A stretch of 64,000 nucleotides of DNA from Candidatus Azotimanducaceae bacterium (GCA_965243095.1 OZ251530.1:1480415-1544414); one strand, 5' to 3'. Numbered from the stretch's first letter, positions 6,647 through 64,000 are shown. Notes: generated by a model from the letters alone, not told the origin. Made by a program: numbers and translations.

Positions 6647-7494
6647 GTGGTTGGCTGCGCCACGGCGTCGCCAGCGGCCCGCGCTTGCAGTTCGCGCACC
6701 TGCGCCACCTCGCCGAGCAGCTCGTCGATCGGCGGCAAGTTGAAGTCGCGCTCCAGCAGCGTCGGCAGCGGGCCGTGCAGCTTGTAGGCTTCGTCAAGCA
6801 GGCGCCACACCGGGTCGATGACCGGGGCGCCGTGGGTGTCCACGCACAGGTCCGCGGCTTCGCGGCGGTGCCCGGCGACGTGCAGATACGCGGCGCGGTG
6901 GCCGGGCAGGCAGCGCAGGAAGGCGGAGGCGTTGTAGCCGAAGTTGACGCTGTTCACATAGATGTTGTTGACGTCCAAGAGCAGCAGGCAATCCGCCCGT
7001 TCGACCACTTCGTTGATGAAGTCCACCTCGGCCATCTCCTGGCCGGGCGCCGCGTAGTAGGAGACGTTCTCCACGCCGATGCGCTCGCCCAAGGCGTCCT
7101 GCACGCGGCGGACGCGCTCGGCGACGTGTTGCGCGGCTTCCTCCGTGAACGGAATGGGCATGAGGTCGTAGAGGTGGCCGTCGTCGTCGGCGCACGCGGA
7201 GAGATGCTCGGTGTAGCGGCGAACGCGGTGTTCGGCGAGAAAGCGCTTGATCGCCGCCACCAGTTCCATGTCCAGCGGCGCGACGCCGCCAAGATTGAGG
7301 GAAAGGCCGTGGCAAACCAGCGGCAAGCGCTCGGTGAGCGTGTGGAACAGGCGGCCGAAACGGCCACCCACGTCGATCCAGTTCTCCGGCGCGACCTCGA
7401 GGAAGTCCACGCCCGGATCGTCCGGGTGGCAGCGAAGATGCTCTGCCAACGCCGCCATGAGGCCGCGTCGCAGCCCCACTCCAGCGCCTTGCAT
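6643..7494 (-). CDS. hvfB: DUF692-family multinuclear non-heme iron enzyme (MNIO; MbnB/HvfB-like)
   Basis: GVGLRRGL...DFLEVAPENWI...LVCHGLSLNLGG...YTEHLS match the UPF0276/DUF692 TIM-barrel family. The start was taken at MQGAGVGL (ATG 7494); the track start 7548 is also possible. Confidence 0.85.
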   Translation of the reverse strand: MQGAGVGLRRGLMAALAEHLRCHPDDPGVDFLEVAPENWIDVGGRFGRLFHTLTERLPLVCHGLSLNLGGVAPLDMELVAAIKRFLAEHRVRRYTEHLSACADDDGHLYDLMPIPFTEEAAQHVAERVRRVQDALGERIGVENVSYYAAPGQEMAEVDFINEVVERADCLLLLDVNNIYVNSVNFGYNASAFLRCLPGHRAAYLHVAGHRREAADLCVDTHGAPVIDPVWRLLDEAYKLHGPLPTLLERDFNLPPIDELLGEVAQVRELQARAAGDAVAQPTT

Positions 7495-7600
7495 CGCTAT
7501 TGCGGAATCCAGCGCCAACCCGTGTCGCGCGCCGGATGGGGAAGCCAAGGAACCGGGACGGCGGCCGCCGCCCCGGTTCGCTGCCGAAGCTGGCTTCGGG

Positions 7601-7945
7601 CTACTCCTCGGCGGGCGCGTCGTCTTCGGATTCGTCGGAATCCCCGGACTCTTCGCCCTTGCCCTCGCCCTCGCCGCAGTTGCCCTCGCCGCACTTGCCT
7701 TCGTCCATCCCTTCTTTGCCGCCTTCGCCTTCGGCGTCCTCGGCGGGCTTCTCGGCGTCTTCGCCGCAGCCGCCCTCGCCGTGGCTTTTGGCGAACAACA
7801 CGCCGTCGAGCGCGCGGGTTTCGAACGGATCGGCGGCGGTCGTTTCGGCCGGTTGGACGGCCTCCTCGGCCACGGCCGGCGCCAACGACGCAGCGAAAGC
7901 CGCGCCCACAGCGGCAGCGATGGGTTTCATCTTGCGATTCAACAT
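7601..7945 (-). CDS. hvfA: secreted Cys-Gly-motif RiPP precursor (HvfA-family metallophore precursor-like)
   Basis: GGAG lies ~9 nt upstream of the ATG at 7945. The signal peptide is MKPIAAAVGAAFAASLAPAVA. The acidic low-complexity core has three [EG]G[GKN]CGE motifs (EGGCGED, EGKCGEGNCGEGEG). It sits immediately upstream of the DUF692 and DUF2063 genes. Confidence 0.65.
   Translation of the reverse strand: MLNRKMKPIAAAVGAAFAASLAPAVAEEAVQPAETTAADPFETRALDGVLFAKSHGEGGCGEDAEKPAEDAEGEGGKEGMDEGKCGEGNCGEGEGKGEESGDSDESEDDAPAEE

Positions 7946-52210: not shown

Positions 52211-52214
<4 letters not shown>
51138..52214 (-). CDS. serC: 3-phosphoserine/phosphohydroxythreonine aminotransferase
   Basis: [27 protein letters not shown]-like [12 protein letters not shown] and RASLYNA. 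Confidence 0.95.
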
Positions 52215-54961
<2,747 letters not shown>

Positions 54962-57008: not shown

Positions 57009-60000
57009 TTACGGCCTTGCGGTGGCGGAGAGATTGGCGAGGTGCCCGGCGGGGCTCTCCATCAAGCTCATGACGGTGAGCGGGTTGTCGAAGGAAACGG
57101 TCAGGCGCCACTGGCCCTCGCCATCGCCGAGCGCGCCTTCGAGACTCTCGTCGCCGGCTTCGAGTTGCGCCGCGGTGAGAGTCAGCGCCTCGCCGGCCGG
57201 CACCATGACGGTTAGCGGCCCCGCCTCCGCGCCAGCGTCGTCCACGCCGTTGATCGTCGCCGTCGCCGCATCCGCGCCGTTGTTCGCTAGGCGCAGGAGG
57301 CTCCCTTGTTGTTCGTTCGACGCCGGGTGGAACACCGCCACGCGCGCGGCGCCATCCGCAGCTGGTGCCACTTCGTGCAGACTGGCCACGAAGCCGTCCG
57401 CGTGGCGTACATAGGCCGCCGCGGCGAGTGAGAGGGTGCCGCTTCGCAGTTCCAAGCGCCACGCGCCCTTCGTCGGCGCGCCGACGCCGGACGCCAAGCC
57501 CTTCTTGGCGTTGCCGTTCTCCAAGTCGTCCGAGTTGAAGTGCATTGTCGCCCGCGCCGCAAGCTGTAGCTGGATCGGGCCGGCGCGGACGCCGGCGTCG
57601 TCCACCGCCGAAATCTCCACCATGCCTTCGGCCGCGGTCATGTTCGCCACGCGGGCGAAGCCCTCGCGGCCGGCCGGGTTCATCGCCGACGGGAACAGTG
57701 GCAGGCGCAGCGTCTCGCCCGCGGCCGCGCGCAGCGGCGGCGGCGACAGGTTCGAGAGGTGTCCGCTCGGGCTCGCCAGCCACGAGGACGCCGACAGCGG
57801 CCACGGCGCGTGTACGCGCAAGCGCCACTTGCCGGCGCCGTTGCCGAGTCCCGCGCCGGCGGCGCCCCGCGACCGCTCCAACTGCCCCGCCGTCAATGCC
57901 AGCGTCGCGCCCGCCGGCGCCTCGAAGCCGGGCGCGAAGCGCCCGCGGCCGGCGTCGTCCACGCCCCACACGGACATCCTCGCGGAAGCGGGGACCGGGT
58001 TGAAGACGCGCAGCGAACTGCGTTGGGCGCGGTTGCTCGCCGGGTTGAAGAGGAACGCGGAAAGCGAGTCGCCCGCGCGCGGCAACGCGCCGTGCAACGG
58101 GGTGAGGAATCCGTCCGGCGTGCGGACGTAGGCCAGAACCTCGATGTCGAGCGGGGACCACAGATGCAGCCGCCAGCTGCCCGCCATCGGCGGGCCGACG
58201 CCGTCCATCAGCCCCATCTCGGCGTTGCCGTTCTCCAAGTCCGCCGAGTCGAAGCTCGCCGCCGCGCCGGCGGCCAGCGAAAGCGCCGCCGGGCCGAACG
58301 TCTGCCCGGCCTCGTCCACGGCCTCCACCAGCACCGCGCCATCCATGTCCGATCGGTTCAGCACGCGCACCACGCCGCTCCGCCCGGAAGCGTCCGCCGC
58401 GGAGGGAAACAACGGCACGGCCCAGCCGAACACCACCGTGGCGCCGGCATCGCGCAGCGCCGGAATGTGCGTGTCCAGCGCCGCCGCGCCCAGCGGATTG
58501 CCGCGCAGGCCCAGCGCGCCGCCATCCGCAAGCCCCGGGTGCCCGGCCAGCCCCGACACGTCCGCCAGCCGGTTCCAGCCCAGGCGCAGCCACGACAGCC
58601 GCGTCAGCCCGCGCAGCGGCGAAGCGTCCGCGATGCGGTTGCGCGACAGGTCCAGCCGCGTCAGCGCCCGCAATCCCGCCAGCGCCGAGACGTCGGCCAC
58701 CATGTTGTTCGGCAGCCACAGCCGTCGCAGCTTCGAGAGCCCCGCCAGCGGCGAGATGTCCGCGATGCGGTTGTCGCCCAGATGCAGGTAGATCAGCGAG
58801 TTCAAGCCCGACAGCGCCGAGATGTCCGACAGGCCGTTGCCGTCCAGCCACAGTTGCTCCAAGGACGACAGGCCCGACAGCGGCGACAGGTCGCGCACCG
58901 CCGTGCCGCTCAGCAGCAGCGTCCGCAGGCTGGTCAGCCCCGCCAGCGGCGAGAGGTCCAGCGGCTCGCCTCCGGCCGCCGGCGCGTTGCCGCCCAAGGA
59001 CAGCGACTCCAGCGACACCGCCTGCTCCAGACCCGCCAGCGACGAGATCCCCGCGCCGTCCAGGTTCAGCGTCCGCGCCGCCTGAATGTCCAATATCCTC
59101 AGCGTTCCCGGCTGCTTGCCCAGCGCCCGTTCCACGGCGGCCGTCAGCGCCGGGTCCGGCAGCGAGAACAGCCCGCCAACCACCGGTATGGTTGTCCATG
59201 TCGTCAGGTCGATGCCGCCCGCGTGCGCGGCGGTCAGCACCCGCACCGCGTAGTCTTGGGTGGCGGGCAGTTCGCCCCCGGACAAGGCGATCGTCAGGGT
59301 GGCCGTCGTGCCGCCGGCGACGGCGCCCGCCACGTTGGCGACGGACAGGCCCGGCGTCGCCGGCACCAGCGCGAAGCTGTCCGCGGCGACGCCGCTTGCG
59401 AAGGTGGTTCCGGTCAACGAGACGGCGATCGTCGCGCCGTCCAGGTTCCGCTCGGTGAGGGAAGAGGGATTCACGGACGAGATGGCCACACCGCTGCCCA
59501 GAACCCTGTGGCGCGGGTAGTCCGTGGGCAGGTCTCGGATCGCGTGGTGGTCGTCGACATGGGGGAGATTGGGGTCTTGAAGCTGTCCACCGTGCAACCT
59601 GCCGATGCTCAACCCGTCGGCGTCGGCGTCGTCCTGCCCAACCGTATAGGTGAAGGGTATGGTCCAGCGGTAGGCATTGAAGTTGTCCGGGCAGCTCATC
59701 TGCCTGGTGGCCCCGCCAATCAGCAACTCCAGCCTAAGAGTGTTGGTAGGCCAATGGGTGGCTGAACAGGTTCGGTTGTCGATGACACGTATGCTGAAAG
59801 TCAGGGTGACCGTGATGGTCTCGCCCTGCACGAAGGTGTCGCCGTTCGCAGGGTCGCTCACCGTCATGGTGGCGATGCGGGGGTTGCCTCCGTGGTGGGC
59901 CGCGGCCTGCCCCGCGCCGAGCGCCGCAAGCGCGGCCAAGAGCAAGGCGGCGAGGCGCGGAACCGCGCCATCGCGGCGCCCGCGGATGGCGCCCGCAGCG

Positions 60001-60069
60001 CAGGTCAGCAACATGGCAAGCACCGAGCGCCGCGCACACGCGGGGGGGGGGGGGGGTGGAATCACGCAT
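57009..60069 (-). CDS. large secreted LRR protein, paralog 1; SD-proximal ATG is out of frame with the body at the sequenced C15 tract length (candidate phase-OFF)
   Basis: GGAGGAG (60077-60083), 7 nt, then ATG 60069 encoding MRDST, then C15. The long ORF (track 57009..60107, TTG) is in the -1 register relative to this ATG. With C14 or C17 it would read MRDSTPPPPACARRSVLAMLLTCAAG... The body has Ig-like N-terminal domains, ~9 internalin-type 22-aa LRRs, and four ~115-aa C-terminal modules. An in-frame ATG at 60014 downstream of the tract is an alternative start. Confidence 0.75.
60042..60056 (-). repeat. homopolymeric tract, 15 G on + strand (C15 in the coding sense of paralog 1)
   Basis: Counted directly: c + 9 g (60041-60050), then 6 g (60051-60056). 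Consistent with the IPPPPPPA translation in the track ORF. Confidence 0.95.
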
Positions 60070-60109
60070 ACGCTTTCTCCTCCGTCATGCCCAGCAACAC
60101 CCAGCAAAC

Positions 60110-60132
60110 GCGCTCAGCACGGTGCTGAGCGC
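60110..60132. promoter_or_regulatory. 11-1-11 perfect palindrome in the paralog-1 upstream region (operator-like or hairpin)
   Basis: GCGCTCAGCAC-G-GTGCTGAGCGC, located between the conserved GGTTGACC..GGGTAATATG block and the SD of paralog 1. A degenerate copy lies at 63418-63440 upstream of paralog 2. Confidence 0.35.
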
Positions 60133-60185
60133 AATGGCTTGCCCGGCATATTACCCCTTTTCGGTCAACCGTGCGGCCGCAACGA

Positions 60186-60264
60186 CCTTGGGAGCGCGAG
60201 CGTCTCGCCGCGCTCTCGTTCACATGTATTTCACCGAGAGTGCGGGAGGCGCCTGCGCTCCCAG
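60186..60264. repeat. second REP/BIME-like inverted repeat pair, same family as 35976-36054
   Basis: CCTTGGGAGCGCGAGCGTCTCGCC (60186-60209) and the inverted copy at 60241-60264 (reverse complement CCTGGGAGCGCAGGCGCCTCCCGCA). The pair begins 7 nt downstream of the paralog-2 stop (60271). Confidence 0.5.
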
Positions 60265-60270
60265 GACGGC

Positions 60271-63200
60271 TTACGGTCTTGCGGTGGCGGAGAGGTTGGA
60301 GAGGTGGCCGGCGGGGCTTTCCAGCAGGCTCATGACCGTGAGCGGGTTGTCGAACGCCACCGTCAAGCGCCACTTGCCGTCGCCGTCGCCCAGCGCGCCT
60401 TCCAAGCCTTCGCCGCCGTCTTCGAGTTGCGCGGCGGTGAGCGTCAGCGCTTCGCCTGCGGGCACGGTGGCGGTTAACGGTTCCGACGTCGCGCCGGCGT
60501 CGTCCACCCCGGTGATGGTCGCCATCGCCGGCTCGTCGCCGTTGTTCGCCAAGCGCAGGAGGCTGCGCTGCCCGTCGCTGGACGCCGGGTGGAACACGGC
60601 CACCCGCGCCGCGCCGTCGGCAACCGGGGCCGTCTCGTGCAGGCTGGTCACGAAGCCGTCGGCGTGGCGGGTGTAGGTTGCGGCGGCGAGTGTGAGGGTG
60701 CCGCTTTGCAGTTCCAGCCGCCACGCGCCCTTCGTCGGCGCGCCAACGCCGGACGCCAAGCCCTTCGCGGCGTTGCCGTTCTCCAAATCCTCCGAGTTGA
60801 AGTGCATCGTCGCCCGCGCCGCAAGCTGGAGCTGGATCGGGCCGGCGCGGACGCCGGCGTCGTCCACCGCCGAAATCTCTACCATGCCTTCCGCCGCGGT
60901 CATGTTCGCCACGCGGGCGAAGCCCTCGCGGCCGGCCGGGTTCATCGCCGACGGGAACATTGGCAGCCGCAGCGTCTCGTCCGCGGCCGCGCGCAGCGGC
61001 GGAGCCGACAGGTTCGAGAGATGCCCGCTCGGGCTTTCCAGCCACGAGGACGCCGACAGCGGCCAGGTTGCGTGTACGCGCAGGCGCCACTTGCCGGCGC
61101 CGTTGCCGAGACCCGCGCCGACGGCGCCCCGCGACCGCTCCAACTGCCCCGCCGTCAACGCCAGCGGGGCGTTCGCGGGCGCCTCAAAGCCGGGCGCGAA
61201 GCGCCCGCGGCCGGCGTCGTCCACGCCCCACACCGACATCCTCGTGGAAGCGGGGACCGGGTTGAAGACGCGCAGCGAACTGCGTTGGGCGCGGTTGCTC
61301 GCCGGGTTGAAGAGGAACGCCGAAAGCGAGTCGCCCGCGCGCGGCAACTCGCCGTGCGCCGGGGTCAGGAATCCGTCCGGTGTGCGGACGTAGGCCAGAA
61401 CCTCGATGTCCAGCGCCGACCACACATGCAGCCGCCAGCTGCCCGCCATCGGCGGGCCGACGCCGTCCGTCAGCCCCATCTCGGCGTTGCCGTTCTCCAA
61501 GTCCGCCGAGTCGAACTGCGCCGCCGCGCCGGCGGCCAGCGGAAGCGACACCGGGCCGACTGTTCGGCCGGCCTCGTCCACGGCCTCCATCAACACCGCG
61601 CCGTCCATGTCCGTGCGGTTCAAGACGCGCACGACGCCGCCGCGCCCGGATGCGTCCGCGGCCGAGGGGAACAGCGGCACGGCCCAGCCGAACACCACCG
61701 CCGCGCCGGCCTCGCGCAGCGCCGGAATGTGCGTGTCCAGCGCCGCCGCGCCCAGCGGATTCCCGCGCAGCCCCAACGCGCCGCCGTCCGCGAGCCCGCG
61801 GTGGCCGGCCAACCCCGACACGTCCGCCAGCCGATTCCAGCCGAGGCGCAGCCACGAGAGCCGCGTCAACCCGCGCAGCGGCGAGGCGTCGGCGACGCGG
61901 TTGCGCGACAGGTCCAGCCGCGTCAGCGCTCGCAGCCCCGCCAGCGCCGAGACGTCGGCCACCATGTTGCCGGGCAGCCACAGCCGCCGCAGCTTCGAGA
62001 GCCCCGCCAGCGCCGAGAGGTCCGCGATGCGGTTGTCCCCCAGATGCAGGTAGATCAGCGAGCCAAGCGCCGACAGCGTCGAGATGTCCGACAGGCCGTT
62101 GCCGTCCAGCCACAACTGTTCCAAGGACGACAGGCCCGACAGCGGCGACAGGTCGCGCACCGCCGTGCCGCTCAGCAGCAGCGTCCGCAGGCTGGTCAGC
62201 CCCGCCAGCGGCGAGAGGTCCAGCGGCTCGCCTCCGGCCGCCGGCGCGTTGCCGCCCAGGGACAGCGATTCCAGCGACACCGCCTCCTCCAGACCCGCCA
62301 GCGACGAGATCCCCGCGCCGTCCAGGTTCAGCGTCCGCAACGCCGGCATGTCCACTAGCCTCAGCGTTCCCGGCTGCTTGCCCAGCGCCCGCTCCACGGC
62401 GGCCGTCAGCGCCGGCTCCCCCAGCGAGAACGTGCCGCCAACCACCGGTATGGTCGTCCACGTCGTCAGGTCGATGCCGCCGGCGTGCGCGGCGGTCGGC
62501 ACCCGCACCGCGAAGGCGTAGCTGGCGGGCAGTTCGCCGCCGGCGTGGGCGAGCGTCAGCGTGGCCGTCGTGCCGCCGGAGGCGGCGCCGGCCACGTTGG
62601 CGATGGACAGGCCCGGAACCGGCGGCACCAGCGCGAAGCTGGCCGCGGTGACGCCGCTTGCGAAGGTGGTGTCCGTCAACGAGAGGGCGATCGTCGCGCC
62701 GTCCACGTTCCGCTCGGTGAGGGAAGAGGGATTCACGGCCGAGATGGCGATGGCGCTGCCGGCGACCTTGTGGTTCGGCGAGTTCTGGATACGCGGTAGG
62801 CTGCCGTAGTCTACCGGGTTCCCGGAGCCGCCGTTATCGGCGTTGGGGAAAATAGTTCCACCGTGCAACCTGCTGATGCTCAACCCGTCGGCGTCGGCGT
62901 CATCCTGCCCAACCGTATAAGTAAAGGGTATGTTCGAGCGGACCCAATTGCCGTTGGTCTGGCATCTCATTTGCCTGGTGGCCCCGCCAATTAGCAACTC
63001 CAACTGCACAATGCCGAGGCCGGACCAGCTCGTTTGACACGTGTTGTTGTCCCTGAGAGGTTCACTGAAGTGCAAGGTGGCCGTGATGGTCTCGCCCTGC
63101 ACGAAGGTGTCGCCCGTCGCCGGGTTGTTCAGCGTGATGCGGGTTATGGTGGGCGGGATCAATTGGGCCGCGGCTTGCCCCGCGCCGAGCGCGGTAAGCG

Positions 63201-63387
63201 CGGCCAAGAGCAAGGCGGCGAGGCGCGGAACCGCGCCATCGCGGCACCCGCGGATGGCGCCCGCAGCGCAGGTCAGCAGCGCGGCAAACGACCAGTGCCG
63301 ACGGCGGAACTCGATGCGATGGCGCAACCGATCAGACATGGGATCGGCCCCGCCGCCGTGGGGGGGGGGGGGGGTGGAATCGTCCAT
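60271..63387 (-). CDS. large secreted LRR protein, paralog 2; SD-proximal ATG in frame through the C15 tract (candidate phase-ON)
   Basis: GGAGGAG (63396-63402), 8 nt, then ATG 63387 encoding MDDSTPPPPHGGGADPMSDRL..., in frame with the whole 1038-aa body. It has the same architecture as paralog 1. The LRR and C-terminal modules are >90% identical by eye, while the N-terminal Ig-like region is divergent. Confidence 0.85.
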   Translation of the reverse strand: MDDSTPPPPHGGGADPMSDRLRHRIEFRRRHWSFAALLTCAAGAIRGCRDGAVPRLAALLLAALTALGAGQAAAQLIPPTITRITLNNPATGDTFVQGETITATLHFSEPLRDNNTCQTSWSGLGIVQLELLIGGATRQMRCQTNGNWVRSNIPFTYTVGQDDADADGLSISRLHGGTIFPNADNGGSGNPVDYGSLPRIQNSPNHKVAGSAIAISAVNPSSLTERNVDGATIALSLTDTTFASGVTAASFALVPPVPGLSIANVAGAASGGTTATLTLAHAGGELPASYAFAVRVPTAAHAGGIDLTTWTTIPVVGGTFSLGEPALTAAVERALGKQPGTLRLVDMPALRTLNLDGAGISSLAGLEEAVSLESLSLGGNAPAAGGEPLDLSPLAGLTSLRTLLLSGTAVRDLSPLSGLSSLEQLWLDGNGLSDISTLSALGSLIYLHLGDNRIADLSALAGLSKLRRLWLPGNMVADVSALAGLRALTRLDLSRNRVADASPLRGLTRLSWLRLGWNRLADVSGLAGHRGLADGGALGLRGNPLGAAALDTHIPALREAGAAVVFGWAVPLFPSAADASGRGGVVRVLNRTDMDGAVLMEAVDEAGRTVGPVSLPLAAGAAAQFDSADLENGNAEMGLTDGVGPPMAGSWRLHVWSALDIEVLAYVRTPDGFLTPAHGELPRAGDSLSAFLFNPASNRAQRSSLRVFNPVPASTRMSVWGVDDAGRGRFAPGFEAPANAPLALTAGQLERSRGAVGAGLGNGAGKWRLRVHATWPLSASSWLESPSGHLSNLSAPPLRAAADETLRLPMFPSAMNPAGREGFARVANMTAAEGMVEISAVDDAGVRAGPIQLQLAARATMHFNSEDLENGNAAKGLASGVGAPTKGAWRLELQSGTLTLAAATYTRHADGFVTSLHETAPVADGAARVAVFHPASSDGQRSLLRLANNGDEPAMATITGVDDAGATSEPLTATVPAGEALTLTAAQLEDGGEGLEGALGDGDGKWRLTVAFDNPLTVMSLLESPAGHLSNLSATARP
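63360..63374 (-). repeat. homopolymeric tract, 15 G on + strand (C15 in the coding sense of paralog 2)
   Basis: Counted directly: g at 63360, 10 g (63361-63370), then 4 g (63371-63374). Consistent with STPPPPH in the ORF translation. Confidence 0.95.
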
Positions 63388-63484
63388 TACGCTTTCTCCT
63401 CCATCATGCCCAGCAACGCGCCCAGCGCGTGGCTGAGCGCAAGCCCTACCCGCCATATTACCCTTTTTTCGGGTCAACCGCACG

Positions 63485-64000
63485 CTAGCGCAGCACCAGG
63501 CGGGCGTTGCGTGGCTGTACCGGGCGGTTGTTCGGGCCGCGCAGCGCATCCGCAAAGGCCGCCATCTGCTCGCTTGATGCCGATGTCGGCGCCTTCATCA
63601 CCAGCCAGATCACGCCTTCCGTGCAGGGCGGCGTGGTGAGGGAGCCGTTGAAGCGGTAGTAGTCGCGGGCTTCGGGCAGCAGGGCCGCCGGATCGATGGG
63701 CGCGGCGAAGACGTGCTCTGCGCCGGTGCCCGGCATGTGCCGCCACGACTGCGCCAAAGCGGCGTTGTGTTCGCCGGCCGCGAACATCACCGCGATCACG
63801 GCCAGACCGCCGTCGGGGCCGACGTGGACGAAGTGGACTTCCATCGGGAACTCGACGCCTTCGATGCGGTTCTCGCTCGGCGCGTGGAAGTGGAATTGCA
63901 GCAGGCGATAGACGCGCCCGTCGAGGGTGATCTCGCTGCCGTCGCCGCTTTCGACCTGAACCGTGTGGCCGTTGTTGACGATCGCCGTGCCGCTCCGGGC
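63485..64000 (-). CDS. alpha-class carbonic anhydrase (partial; 5' end beyond window)
   Basis: Manual translation to the window edge gives ..NNGHTVQVESG..YRLLQFHFHAPSENRIEGVEFPMEVHFVH..YYRFNGSLTTPPCTEGVIWLV..NNRPVQPRNARLV, the canonical alpha-CA zinc-ligand and active-site motifs. Confidence 0.85.
   Translation of the reverse strand, partial: ARSGTAIVNNGHTVQVESGDGSEITLDGRVYRLLQFHFHAPSENRIEGVEFPMEVHFVHVGPDGGLAVIAVMFAAGEHNAALAQSWRHMPGTGAEHVFAAPIDPAALLPEARDYYRFNGSLTTPPCTEGVIWLVMKAPTSASSEQMAAFADALRGPNNRPVQPRNARLVLR

Follow-up and report, generated by a model that had tools for sequence, protein, structure and literature searches.

The 64,000-nt stretch of DNA analyzed here (the window; GCA_965243095.1 OZ251530.1:1480415-1544414, from a 4,807,997-bp contig of Candidatus Azotimanducaceae bacterium) carries a tandem pair of genes for large leucine-rich repeat (LRR) proteins, each with a homopolymeric cytosine (poly-C) tract close to its start codon. 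A preliminary description, made from the sequence alone, had reported such a pair at this position, encoding proteins with a leader, immunoglobulin (Ig)-like domains, LRRs and four C-terminal modules. Our analysis confirms the architecture and the position, and corrects the strand: both genes are on the minus strand, in head-to-tail order. A mechanical listing of open reading frames (ORFs) gave 57009..60107 and 60271..63555, and the likely true starts are ATG codons preceded by a Shine-Dalgarno (SD) sequence at 60069 in the downstream copy (gene A, winA) and at 63387 in the upstream copy (gene B, winB). The central features are as follows, with coordinates counted from the first letter of the window.

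60271-63387, minus strand: gene B, encoding a 1038-aa LRR protein, in frame (ON) from ATG 63387 at C15 (ORF and frame arithmetic)
63360-63374, minus strand: poly-C tract of B, C15 in the sense direction (G15 on the plus strand), codons 5 to 9/10, encoding TPPPP(H) (sequence)
63396-63402, minus strand: SD sequence GGAGGAG of B, 8 nt upstream of ATG 63387 (conserved in nine cassettes)
57009-60069, minus strand: gene A, out of frame (OFF) from ATG 60069 at C15, with a 111-aa product (ORF and frame arithmetic)
60042-60056, minus strand: poly-C tract of A, C15 (G15 on the plus strand) (sequence)
60077-60083, minus strand: SD sequence GGAGGAG of A (sequence)

Both genes read GGAGGAGAAAGCGT(A)-ATG-NNN-GAT-TCC-A followed by fifteen C's, and the tract has the same spacing, GGAGGAG-N7/8-ATG-N10-tract, in the two copies. 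No other homopolymer of 8 bases or more occurs in the 64 kb, where the next-longest G/C run is 6. By chance, about 0.007 G/C runs of at least 15 would be expected in the window; two were seen, at the same position in the gene.

The consequences for translation were worked out by frame arithmetic. From ATG 63387, gene B is open for 1038 codons at C15, and C12 and C18 are also in frame. The public annotation of the source genome contains a 1038-aa protein (P0001) that is 100% identical to B and uses the same ATG. From ATG 60069, gene A gives 111 codons at C15 and is in frame at C11, C14 and C17, with a length of 1019 aa at C14 and 1020 aa at C17; its long frame runs from the tract to the stop codon at 57009-57011. 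All off-frames of A and B end after 17-112 codons. Since the registers of A and B differ, the two genes would switch independently. In the preliminary description the homopolymer was assigned to a duplicated block upstream of the genes. Its place in the duplicated block holds, but the C15 tract sits inside the 5' coding region.

The pair had also been taken for an isolated duplication, and this does not hold. A search with protein B gave 809 homologs (E <= 1e-5). At least 13 of them are encoded on the window's own contig, and a similar number is present in assembly ERZ26050434, a related genome (contigs of 3.37 and 1.37 Mb) whose GyrA is 97% identical to that of the window. The paralogs share the LRR and C-terminal parts, and their N-terminal domains vary (Ig-like, Calx-beta, NHL propeller or FN3). 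Frame tables were made for 15 genes from four assemblies, i.e., the two window genes and 13 further genes; at least two of these assemblies appear to be short-read, judging by their scaffold-style record names. Tract length and the resulting state of the long frame were:

winB, window: C15, ON
winA, window: C15, OFF
L009, PANK22-1 scaffold: C13, OFF
R_g1, L011: C23, ON
R_g2, L010: C23, ON
R_g3, L010: C22, OFF
R_g4 (positional counterpart of winA), L010: C26, OFF
R_psd1, L012: C21, OFF
R_psd2, L012: C25, ON
L013 gene, L013: C17, OFF
L014 gene 1 (NHL type), L014: C12, OFF
L025, PANK22-1 scaffold: C28, OFF
L026 gene, L026: C20, OFF
L027, PANK22-1 scaffold: C14, ON
L028 (Calx-beta type), L028: C21, OFF

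In every gene the tract lies downstream of the start codon, 3-5 codons past the SD-preceded ATG, with lengths from C12 to C28. Tract length differs even between genes whose 5' regions are nearly identical (about 98-99%): by 7-10 C's for winB (C15) and R_g3 (C22), and for winA (C15) and R_psd2 (C25). Tracts of the B orthologs are C22 (R_g3) and C13 (L009) against C15 in the window, with flanks that are 95-99% identical, and at the psd-glnS locus C21 is found in one relative and C28 in another. Among 123 LRR-family homologs, the poly-proline N-termini that result from translation of in-frame tracts are confined to this lineage, where they occur with several N-terminal architectures. Distant homologs (at most 45% identical, including one in a Candidatus Azotimanducaceae metagenome-assembled genome, MAG) have no such homopolymers, and a search of genome contigs with protein B found solely distant relatives (at most 43% identity), none with homopolymers. 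The preliminary description had called this a contingency-type locus, which is supported chiefly by the position of the tract, the frame difference between A and B, and the length differences between orthologs, none of which it had used.

All 15 tracts have C on the sense strand, and the ON alleles start with 4-9 consecutive prolines. Judging from these codons, translation of ON alleles should depend on elongation factor P (EF-P) and is possibly sensitive to tract length.

That the homopolymers or their lengths are assembly errors, or that the out-of-frame copies are pseudogenes of a decaying family, is highly improbable. Long-read assemblies are error-prone at homopolymers and 10 of the 15 genes are out of frame, as such an explanation would have it. 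Against this, four independent assemblies agree on the codon position of the tract, which recurs in different cassettes and at loci that are not linked, and the roughly 250 kb of DNA fetched from this lineage contain no further long G/C homopolymers. Downstream of each tract the ORF is intact and not otherwise disrupted, with a length of 1007-1085 aa (more in the paralogs of the NHL and Calx-beta types). For the LRR and C-terminal parts, ratios of nonsynonymous to synonymous substitution (dN/dS) are 0.2-0.4, which indicates purifying selection on the OFF copies as well.

The in-frame fraction, 5 of 15, equals the one-third expected for an unconstrained phase. It bears on another explanation, in which slippage occurs at the level of RNA or the ribosome: stuttering of RNA polymerase or ribosomal frameshifting would give a constant mixture of in-frame and out-of-frame products, the tract would act as a constitutive attenuator, and its length in the DNA would be largely neutral. 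The 5:10 ratio shows no selection for an in-frame consensus length, and in other bacteria a tract of 12-28 nt suffices for transcriptional slippage; such slippage is known at poly-A tracts of endosymbionts and in Shigella mxiE. However, length differences of up to 10 nt between near-identical orthologs show that slippage does occur in the DNA, and slippage in RNA would supplement heritable switching, not replace it. We consider RNA-level slippage as the sole explanation very unlikely.

The tract is part of a conserved 5' cassette, and the claim that the duplication includes a block upstream of the genes was correct: the block is present in both copies and in the orthologs, and comprises GGTTGACC, TAATAT, a hairpin, the SD sequence, the ATG and the homopolymer. 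The remaining elements in the window are:

63455-63479, minus strand: upstream boxes of B, GGTTGACC at 63472-63479 and TAATAT at 63455-63460, starting 8 nt after the carbonic-anhydrase stop codon
63418-63440, minus strand: hairpin (palindrome) in the B leader, GCGCTCAGC-N5-GCTGGGCGC, conserved but lacking in some cassette types
60110-60170, minus strand: upstream cassette of A, with GGTTGACC at 60163-60170, TAATAT at 60148-60153 and a perfect 11-bp hairpin at 60110-60132
63330-63340 (B) and 60005-60014 (A), minus strand: off-frame stop near the internal ATG (sequence)

Four types of 5' cassette were found, encoding MDDST-, MHM-/MAM-, MK(I/F)T- and MKV-/MKI- N-termini, and the tract lies 3-5 codons past the SD-preceded ATG in all of them. 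The layout of cassette plus tract extends to paralogs with NHL-propeller or Calx-beta N-terminal domains. In RNA folding only the local hairpin recurs among the leaders, which are overall no more stable than shuffled sequence (z from -1.9 to +1.3). Both a riboswitch-like leader and masking of the SD sequence by the poly-C tract were therefore rejected. An Rfam scan of the window gave no matches. A metagenome scan with the cassette pattern CATGRYGGAGGAGAAARCGTA returned 10 matches, all attributable to chance and none with poly-C; the lineage is not in the Joint Genome Institute (JGI) collection searched.

The ATG that lies in the cassette, with the perfect SD sequence at ideal spacing before it, is most likely the real start codon, as indicated by gene 2 on L014 (L014:13032-16541), an NHL-type paralog that has its neighbour's 5' cassette without a poly-C tract and is constitutively in frame. 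Its cassette reads ...gagccaagccgATGAAGGTC|GATTTCC, with the junction ATGAAGGTC|GATTTCC, and the cassette ATG is precisely where its ORF of 1169 aa starts. In an alternative model the protein would start at an internal Met (MSDRLRH... in B, MLLTCAAG... in A) and the SD-ATG-poly-C segment would be a leader ORF, with tract length tuning graded expression by coupling, reinitiation or polyproline stalling. Gene callers often picked the internal Met, and a start there still leaves a complete signal peptide. The 20-nt linker after the tract (63340-63359 in the window, compared with L010:3954-3974) is read in two frames in ON genes, as HGGGADP in winB and TAAGPIP in R_g2, due to a 1-nt difference in the C3/C4 run before the internal ATG. 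Because two ON genes read it in different frames, the linker is not constrained as protein, which favours the leader-ORF model.

Read from the SD-preceded ATG, one of the off-frames of each gene yields a short ORF whose stop lies 5-10 nt beyond the in-frame internal ATG (B, ATGTCTGA; A, ATGTTGCTGA). This arrangement, seen in each gene type, is also in line with a leader ORF, and could allow termination-reinitiation and with it a third, low level of expression. On the other hand, the internal in-frame ATGs of A and B have no comparable SD sequence, in contrast to the perfect GGAGGAG before the upstream ATG, and the paralog without a tract starts at the cassette ATG. Other cassettes (L013, L014, L026 and L028) have different downstream sequences and the same ATG-plus-tract layout. 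We therefore regard the leader-ORF model as unlikely; moreover, it still gives heritably variable expression and is a variant of phase variation, not a true alternative to it.

A second source of variation is apparent from the uneven divergence of the two genes. The preliminary description predicted a mosaic pattern and set a per-window alignment of A and B as the check; the alignment shows strongly uneven identity. Per 100 nt, A and B are 47-78% identical over the first ~900 nt, which agrees with the strong N-terminal divergence noted before, 84-100% in the middle and 77-85% over the last 400 nt. Over the 800 alignment columns at the 5' end the copies diverge by 21.6%; this falls to 2.7% at columns 1200-1600 and rises again to 18.5% over the final 400 nt (p = 3e-22 in a chi-square test for heterogeneity). 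The claim that the LRR and C-terminal parts are more than 90% identical is therefore right for the middle but not for the last ~400 nt, which encode the final C-terminal module and show 77-85% identity. The near-identity of A and B over about 400 nt of the LRR region fits recent conversion between the two.

To place these segments within the family, 13 genes were compared by a sliding-window nearest-neighbour analysis with chi-square tests. The closest paralog shifts along both winA and winB. Over its 5' 1.2 kb, winA shares 99.1% identity with R_psd2, a gene of the related genome at the unlinked psd-glnS locus, and just 83.8% with its positional counterpart R_g4; over its 3' 1 kb, the identity of winA to R_psd2 is 85.6% (non-uniformity of winA/R_psd2, p = 9e-31). 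The pair winB and R_g3 is 97.6% and 96.8% identical at the 5' and 3' ends, respectively, with a drop to 88.8% between them (p = 1e-13). The genes are mosaics whose segments have different closest paralogs, some of them at other loci, with p values from 1e-13 to 9e-31, and the suggestion that the genes offer scope for recombination or homogenisation is supported: the nearest relative changes along the genes, and the 5' part of winA matches a gene at another locus.

Selection was examined by pairwise Nei-Gojobori estimates, which are confounded by recombination. The first Ig-like domain (Ig1) gave dN/dS values of 0.7-1.4 in six of seven gene pairs and 0.30 in the near-identical pair winB/R_g3, against 0.2-0.65, mostly 0.2-0.4, for the LRR and C-terminal parts. 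The Ig1 pattern fits either diversifying selection or relaxed constraint. Of the proposed diversification of an exposed tip, the raised protein-level change in the N-terminal domain is thus seen in dN/dS, but this is suggestive at most, as relaxed constraint would fit too.

The domains of the two proteins were assigned by sequence inspection, profile matches, alignment and structure prediction with AlphaFold2 (AF2):

63166-63359, minus strand: linker and extended signal peptide of B, with an Arg cluster as n-region, an LLTCAAGAI motif, the h-region LAALLLAALTALGAG and an AAA|Q site (sequence inspection)
62428-63165, minus strand: two Ig-like beta-sandwich domains of B, the first being the most diverged part, with a conserved Cys pair (structure prediction and alignment)
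61690-62427, minus strand: internalin-type cap and 8-9 LRRs of 22 residues in B (sequence and profile matches)
60274-61689, minus strand: four modules of B resembling the sensory rhodopsin transducer of Anabaena (ASRT), beta-sandwiches in two a-b pairs forming one rigid body (AF2)
59166-59897, minus strand: two Ig-like domains of A (alignment)
57012-59165, minus strand: LRR region (58428-59165) and four ASRT-like modules (57012-58427) of A (homology to B)

The leader is long and bipartite, with an Arg-rich segment that contains a conserved LLTCAAGAIRG, followed by an h-region (LAALLLAAL..) and an AAA|Q/H site. A lipoprotein processed at LLTC was rejected: positions -1 and -2 are unlike a lipobox, one paralog has no Cys, and a Sec-type h-region and AxA site follow. 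From these leader features, the proteins are likely exported. The Ig-like domains were modeled with a mean confidence (pLDDT) of 71 and gave generic Ig matches only in Foldseek. Six of the LRRs have the exact 22-residue spacing, and two or three more are degenerate or capping repeats; in a Pfam search of the window proteins, the LRR block alone was recognised.

The C-terminal part is the best-defined structurally. The last 472 residues were predicted by AF2 with pLDDT 94.6 and pTM 0.92 as four beta-sandwich modules of ~115-120 aa that pack as one body. No internal repeats emerged from self-BLAST; structure prediction and alignment, in contrast, confirm them. With a single module as query, Foldseek against the PDB gave ASRT as the sole convincing match (2ii7/2ii8/2iia), and the modules superimpose on the ASRT fold with probability 1.0, a target-normalised TM score of 0.67-0.83 and ~20% identity. 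A single-module sequence profile was used because the PDB search with profile A1 was dominated by LRR matches; this single-module profile reached ASRT at E = 0.5 only. The window proteins themselves have no PF07100 or PF18986 match. Related modules of other proteins attain the Pfam cut-off of DUF5719 and barely that of ASRT, with PLipase_C_C borderline. The four-module block has 3,017 cluster representatives at E <= 1e-3 and no Pfam model of its own, and it occurs in N-terminal, internal or C-terminal position in proteins of 450-5,419 aa.

The surroundings of the genes vary between strains. On the other side of the pair, 16 nt separate the end of gene A from cysQ, which is convergent. Directly upstream of B lies the following gene.

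63485-63844, minus strand: 3' part of a carbonic-anhydrase (CA) gene, with its stop codon at 63485-63487 (ORF listing)

The order is CA-B-A-cysQ in the window; an Rpn-like gene, g1, CA, g2, CA, g3, g4 and cysQ in the related genome; and LRR, CA, B ortholog and then unrelated genes at the L009 locus. In the related genome the CA gene is co-duplicated with the LRR gene (CA-LRR-CA-LRR-LRR; CA at L010:3114-3818 and 7103-7852), and another LRR gene may sit just past the end of the window (window region 63485-64000). At three loci of this genome, LRR paralogs are adjoined or separated by genes with a PF04754 domain (Transposase_31, the YhgA/Rpn-like family of recombination-promoting nucleases):

L011:6768-7748, L012:10107-11024 and L014:11864-12790: PF04754-domain genes (domain match)

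The PF04754 products may aid exchange between LRR paralogs. Toxin-antitoxin (PhdYeFM/PIN) and AbiEii genes are found near several LRR loci of the related genome (L011:3811-4445, L026:7168-7807 and L013:1039-2560). Elsewhere in the window, GyrA (52211-54961, minus strand) ends in an acidic tail and has, within its C-terminal domain, a D/E/A/P-rich acidic insertion of ~50 residues. The preliminary description's mention of a free-living-type genome context is unsupported, the organism being an uncultured gammaproteobacterium known only from metagenomes.

The reading that we consider probable is slipped-strand translational phase variation at a poly-C tract just past the start codon, together with gene conversion between paralogs. 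Slipped-strand mispairing at the tract would switch each LRR gene stochastically and reversibly: gain or loss of one C at replication would bring the long ORF into or out of frame with the sole strongly SD-preceded ATG. In Neisseria, Haemophilus and Campylobacter, G/C tracts longer than ~8 nt mutate at ~1e-4 to 1e-2 per division. In the assembled state, B would be ON (C15, 1038 aa) and A OFF (C15, requiring C14 or C17), and roughly 12 other tract-bearing paralogs would switch independently, giving a combinatorial repertoire. As a second layer, gene conversion or recombination would move segments from one paralog to another across loci, and the N-terminal Ig-like domain, with dN/dS near 1, would add variation to the displayed protein. 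The tracts, their reading frames, the length differences between strains, the mosaicism and the folds are observed.

Some results weigh against phase variation of this type. The unconstrained linker is also compatible with a tract in a short upstream ORF and a mature protein that starts from the internal Met. A scan for sigma-70 promoters and terminators found no canonical promoter; the TTGACC and TAATAT boxes are 9-11 nt apart, which is not the canonical -35/-10 spacing for sigma-70. The proteins have no LPXTG, autotransporter or other recognised anchor. The C20-C28 tracts come in part from ERZ26050434, for which the contig names suggest long reads, and these lengths may be off by 1-2 nt; because of this uncertainty in homopolymers of 20 nt or more, individual ON/OFF calls are provisional. 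Finally, noisy tract lengths in genes that are all truly ON would give a random-looking 5:10 split as well.

With phase variation and gene conversion acting together, a population would be mixed both in which LRR proteins are exported and in their N-terminal variants. This switching within populations, its effects at the protein level, and the location, ligand and ecological role of the proteins are inferences. Export would occur via Sec, the LRR solenoid would bind a protein ligand, and the four ASRT-like modules would probably have carbohydrate as their ligand, whether this sits on the envelope of the cell itself or belongs to a host or partner. A wider picture, which we offer tentatively, is that of an uncultured high-GC gammaproteobacterium, possibly a sponge symbiont, with a genome-wide 'phasome' of at least 14 tract-gated and cassette-shuffled LRR-ASRT exported proteins. 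Combinatorial phase and antigenic variation in the manner of pathogens would then serve a non-pathogenic symbiont to manage how it is recognised by its host, or by phages or grazers, and tract length might also act as an EF-P-dependent rheostat with more than two expression levels per gene. Record names of related scaffolds carry the code 'PANK22-1', a hint at sponge metagenomes, as it might denote the Pankey et al. 2022 sponge study.

The closest functional analogue of the A/B family is Neisseria opa. The opa genes form a multicopy exported/surface family spread across the genome, a repeat in the leader-coding region frame-shifts each copy independently, and recombination between loci produces mosaics. 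The A/B family is likewise multicopy and mosaic, with the repeat in the leader-coding region. The differences are that opa has a CTCTT pentamer instead of poly-C, that Opa is an 8-stranded outer-membrane beta-barrel instead of an LRR-Ig-ASRT protein, and that Neisseria is a human pathogen with ~52% GC. High-GC Bordetella has polymorphic poly-C tracts of up to C22 in the fim2/fim3/fimX promoters, bvgS, tcfA and bapC (PMC1891110). It resembles the present case in being a high-GC proteobacterium with poly-C/G tracts that are polymorphic between close relatives, are concentrated in cell-envelope genes and are in some cases intragenic (PMC1891110), but its best-studied tracts act in promoters via activator spacing, and they have no fixed position after the start codon throughout a family.

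Phasomes of Campylobacter, Haemophilus and Helicobacter comprise tens of genes per genome with hypermutable poly-G/C tracts (PMC6321876, PMC4081817). The combinatorial phase states of these organisms are like those proposed for the LRR family. However, they are low-GC pathogens, the tracts are usually 8-13 nt, and the genes encode mostly glycosyltransferases, restriction-modification systems and assorted outer-membrane proteins, not a paralog family with a shared cassette.

With Listeria internalins, the proteins share the helical cap and 22-residue LRRs, and PDB internalins are among the top LRR profile matches. The NCBIfam models of InlH and InlA match B at residues ~350-530 (E = 9e-36 and 7e-27, respectively), i.e., in the LRR block; as a match over the whole protein, B scored 124 bits against an internalin cut-off of 1050. 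In B, the Ig-like domains are N-terminal to the LRRs, whereas internalins have an inter-repeat domain after them, and B has an ASRT-like C-terminus, no LPXTG or GW anchor, and a Gram-negative source organism. For the ASRT/ASRAH superfamily, which includes extracellular versions, sugar binding has been inferred or predicted (PMC2739507); ASRT is a small free-standing protein, whereas in B four tandem modules are fused into a rigid body. Eukaryotic-like proteins of sponge symbionts (LRR/ANK/NHL/FN3/cadherin; PMC11706023, PMC8546597) likewise include a large LRR repertoire, fused to NHL, Calx-beta and FN3 domains. Our search of the literature turned up no description of phase variation for LRR or eukaryotic-like proteins of uncultured or symbiotic bacteria.

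Phase variation by simple sequence repeats is textbook knowledge for some cultured pathogens and, to our knowledge, barely documented in uncultured environmental or symbiotic bacteria. The switching mechanism itself is classical, and the candidate contingency system described here is real and well-supported. The analysis also defines a widespread four-module ASRT-like block for which Pfam has no model. If the tracts switch as proposed, consensus annotation of MAGs would systematically mis-call genes of this type, for which gene callers chose three different starts, and stochastic switching could be tested by counting tract lengths in existing metagenomic reads. A single symbiont population would then be a mixture of expression variants, with the switch carried by a whole family of eukaryotic-like LRR proteins, a class long suspected to act in symbiont-host interaction. 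Stochastic switching of the kind known from pathogens would then also operate on a large family of eukaryotic-like proteins in an uncultured lineage.

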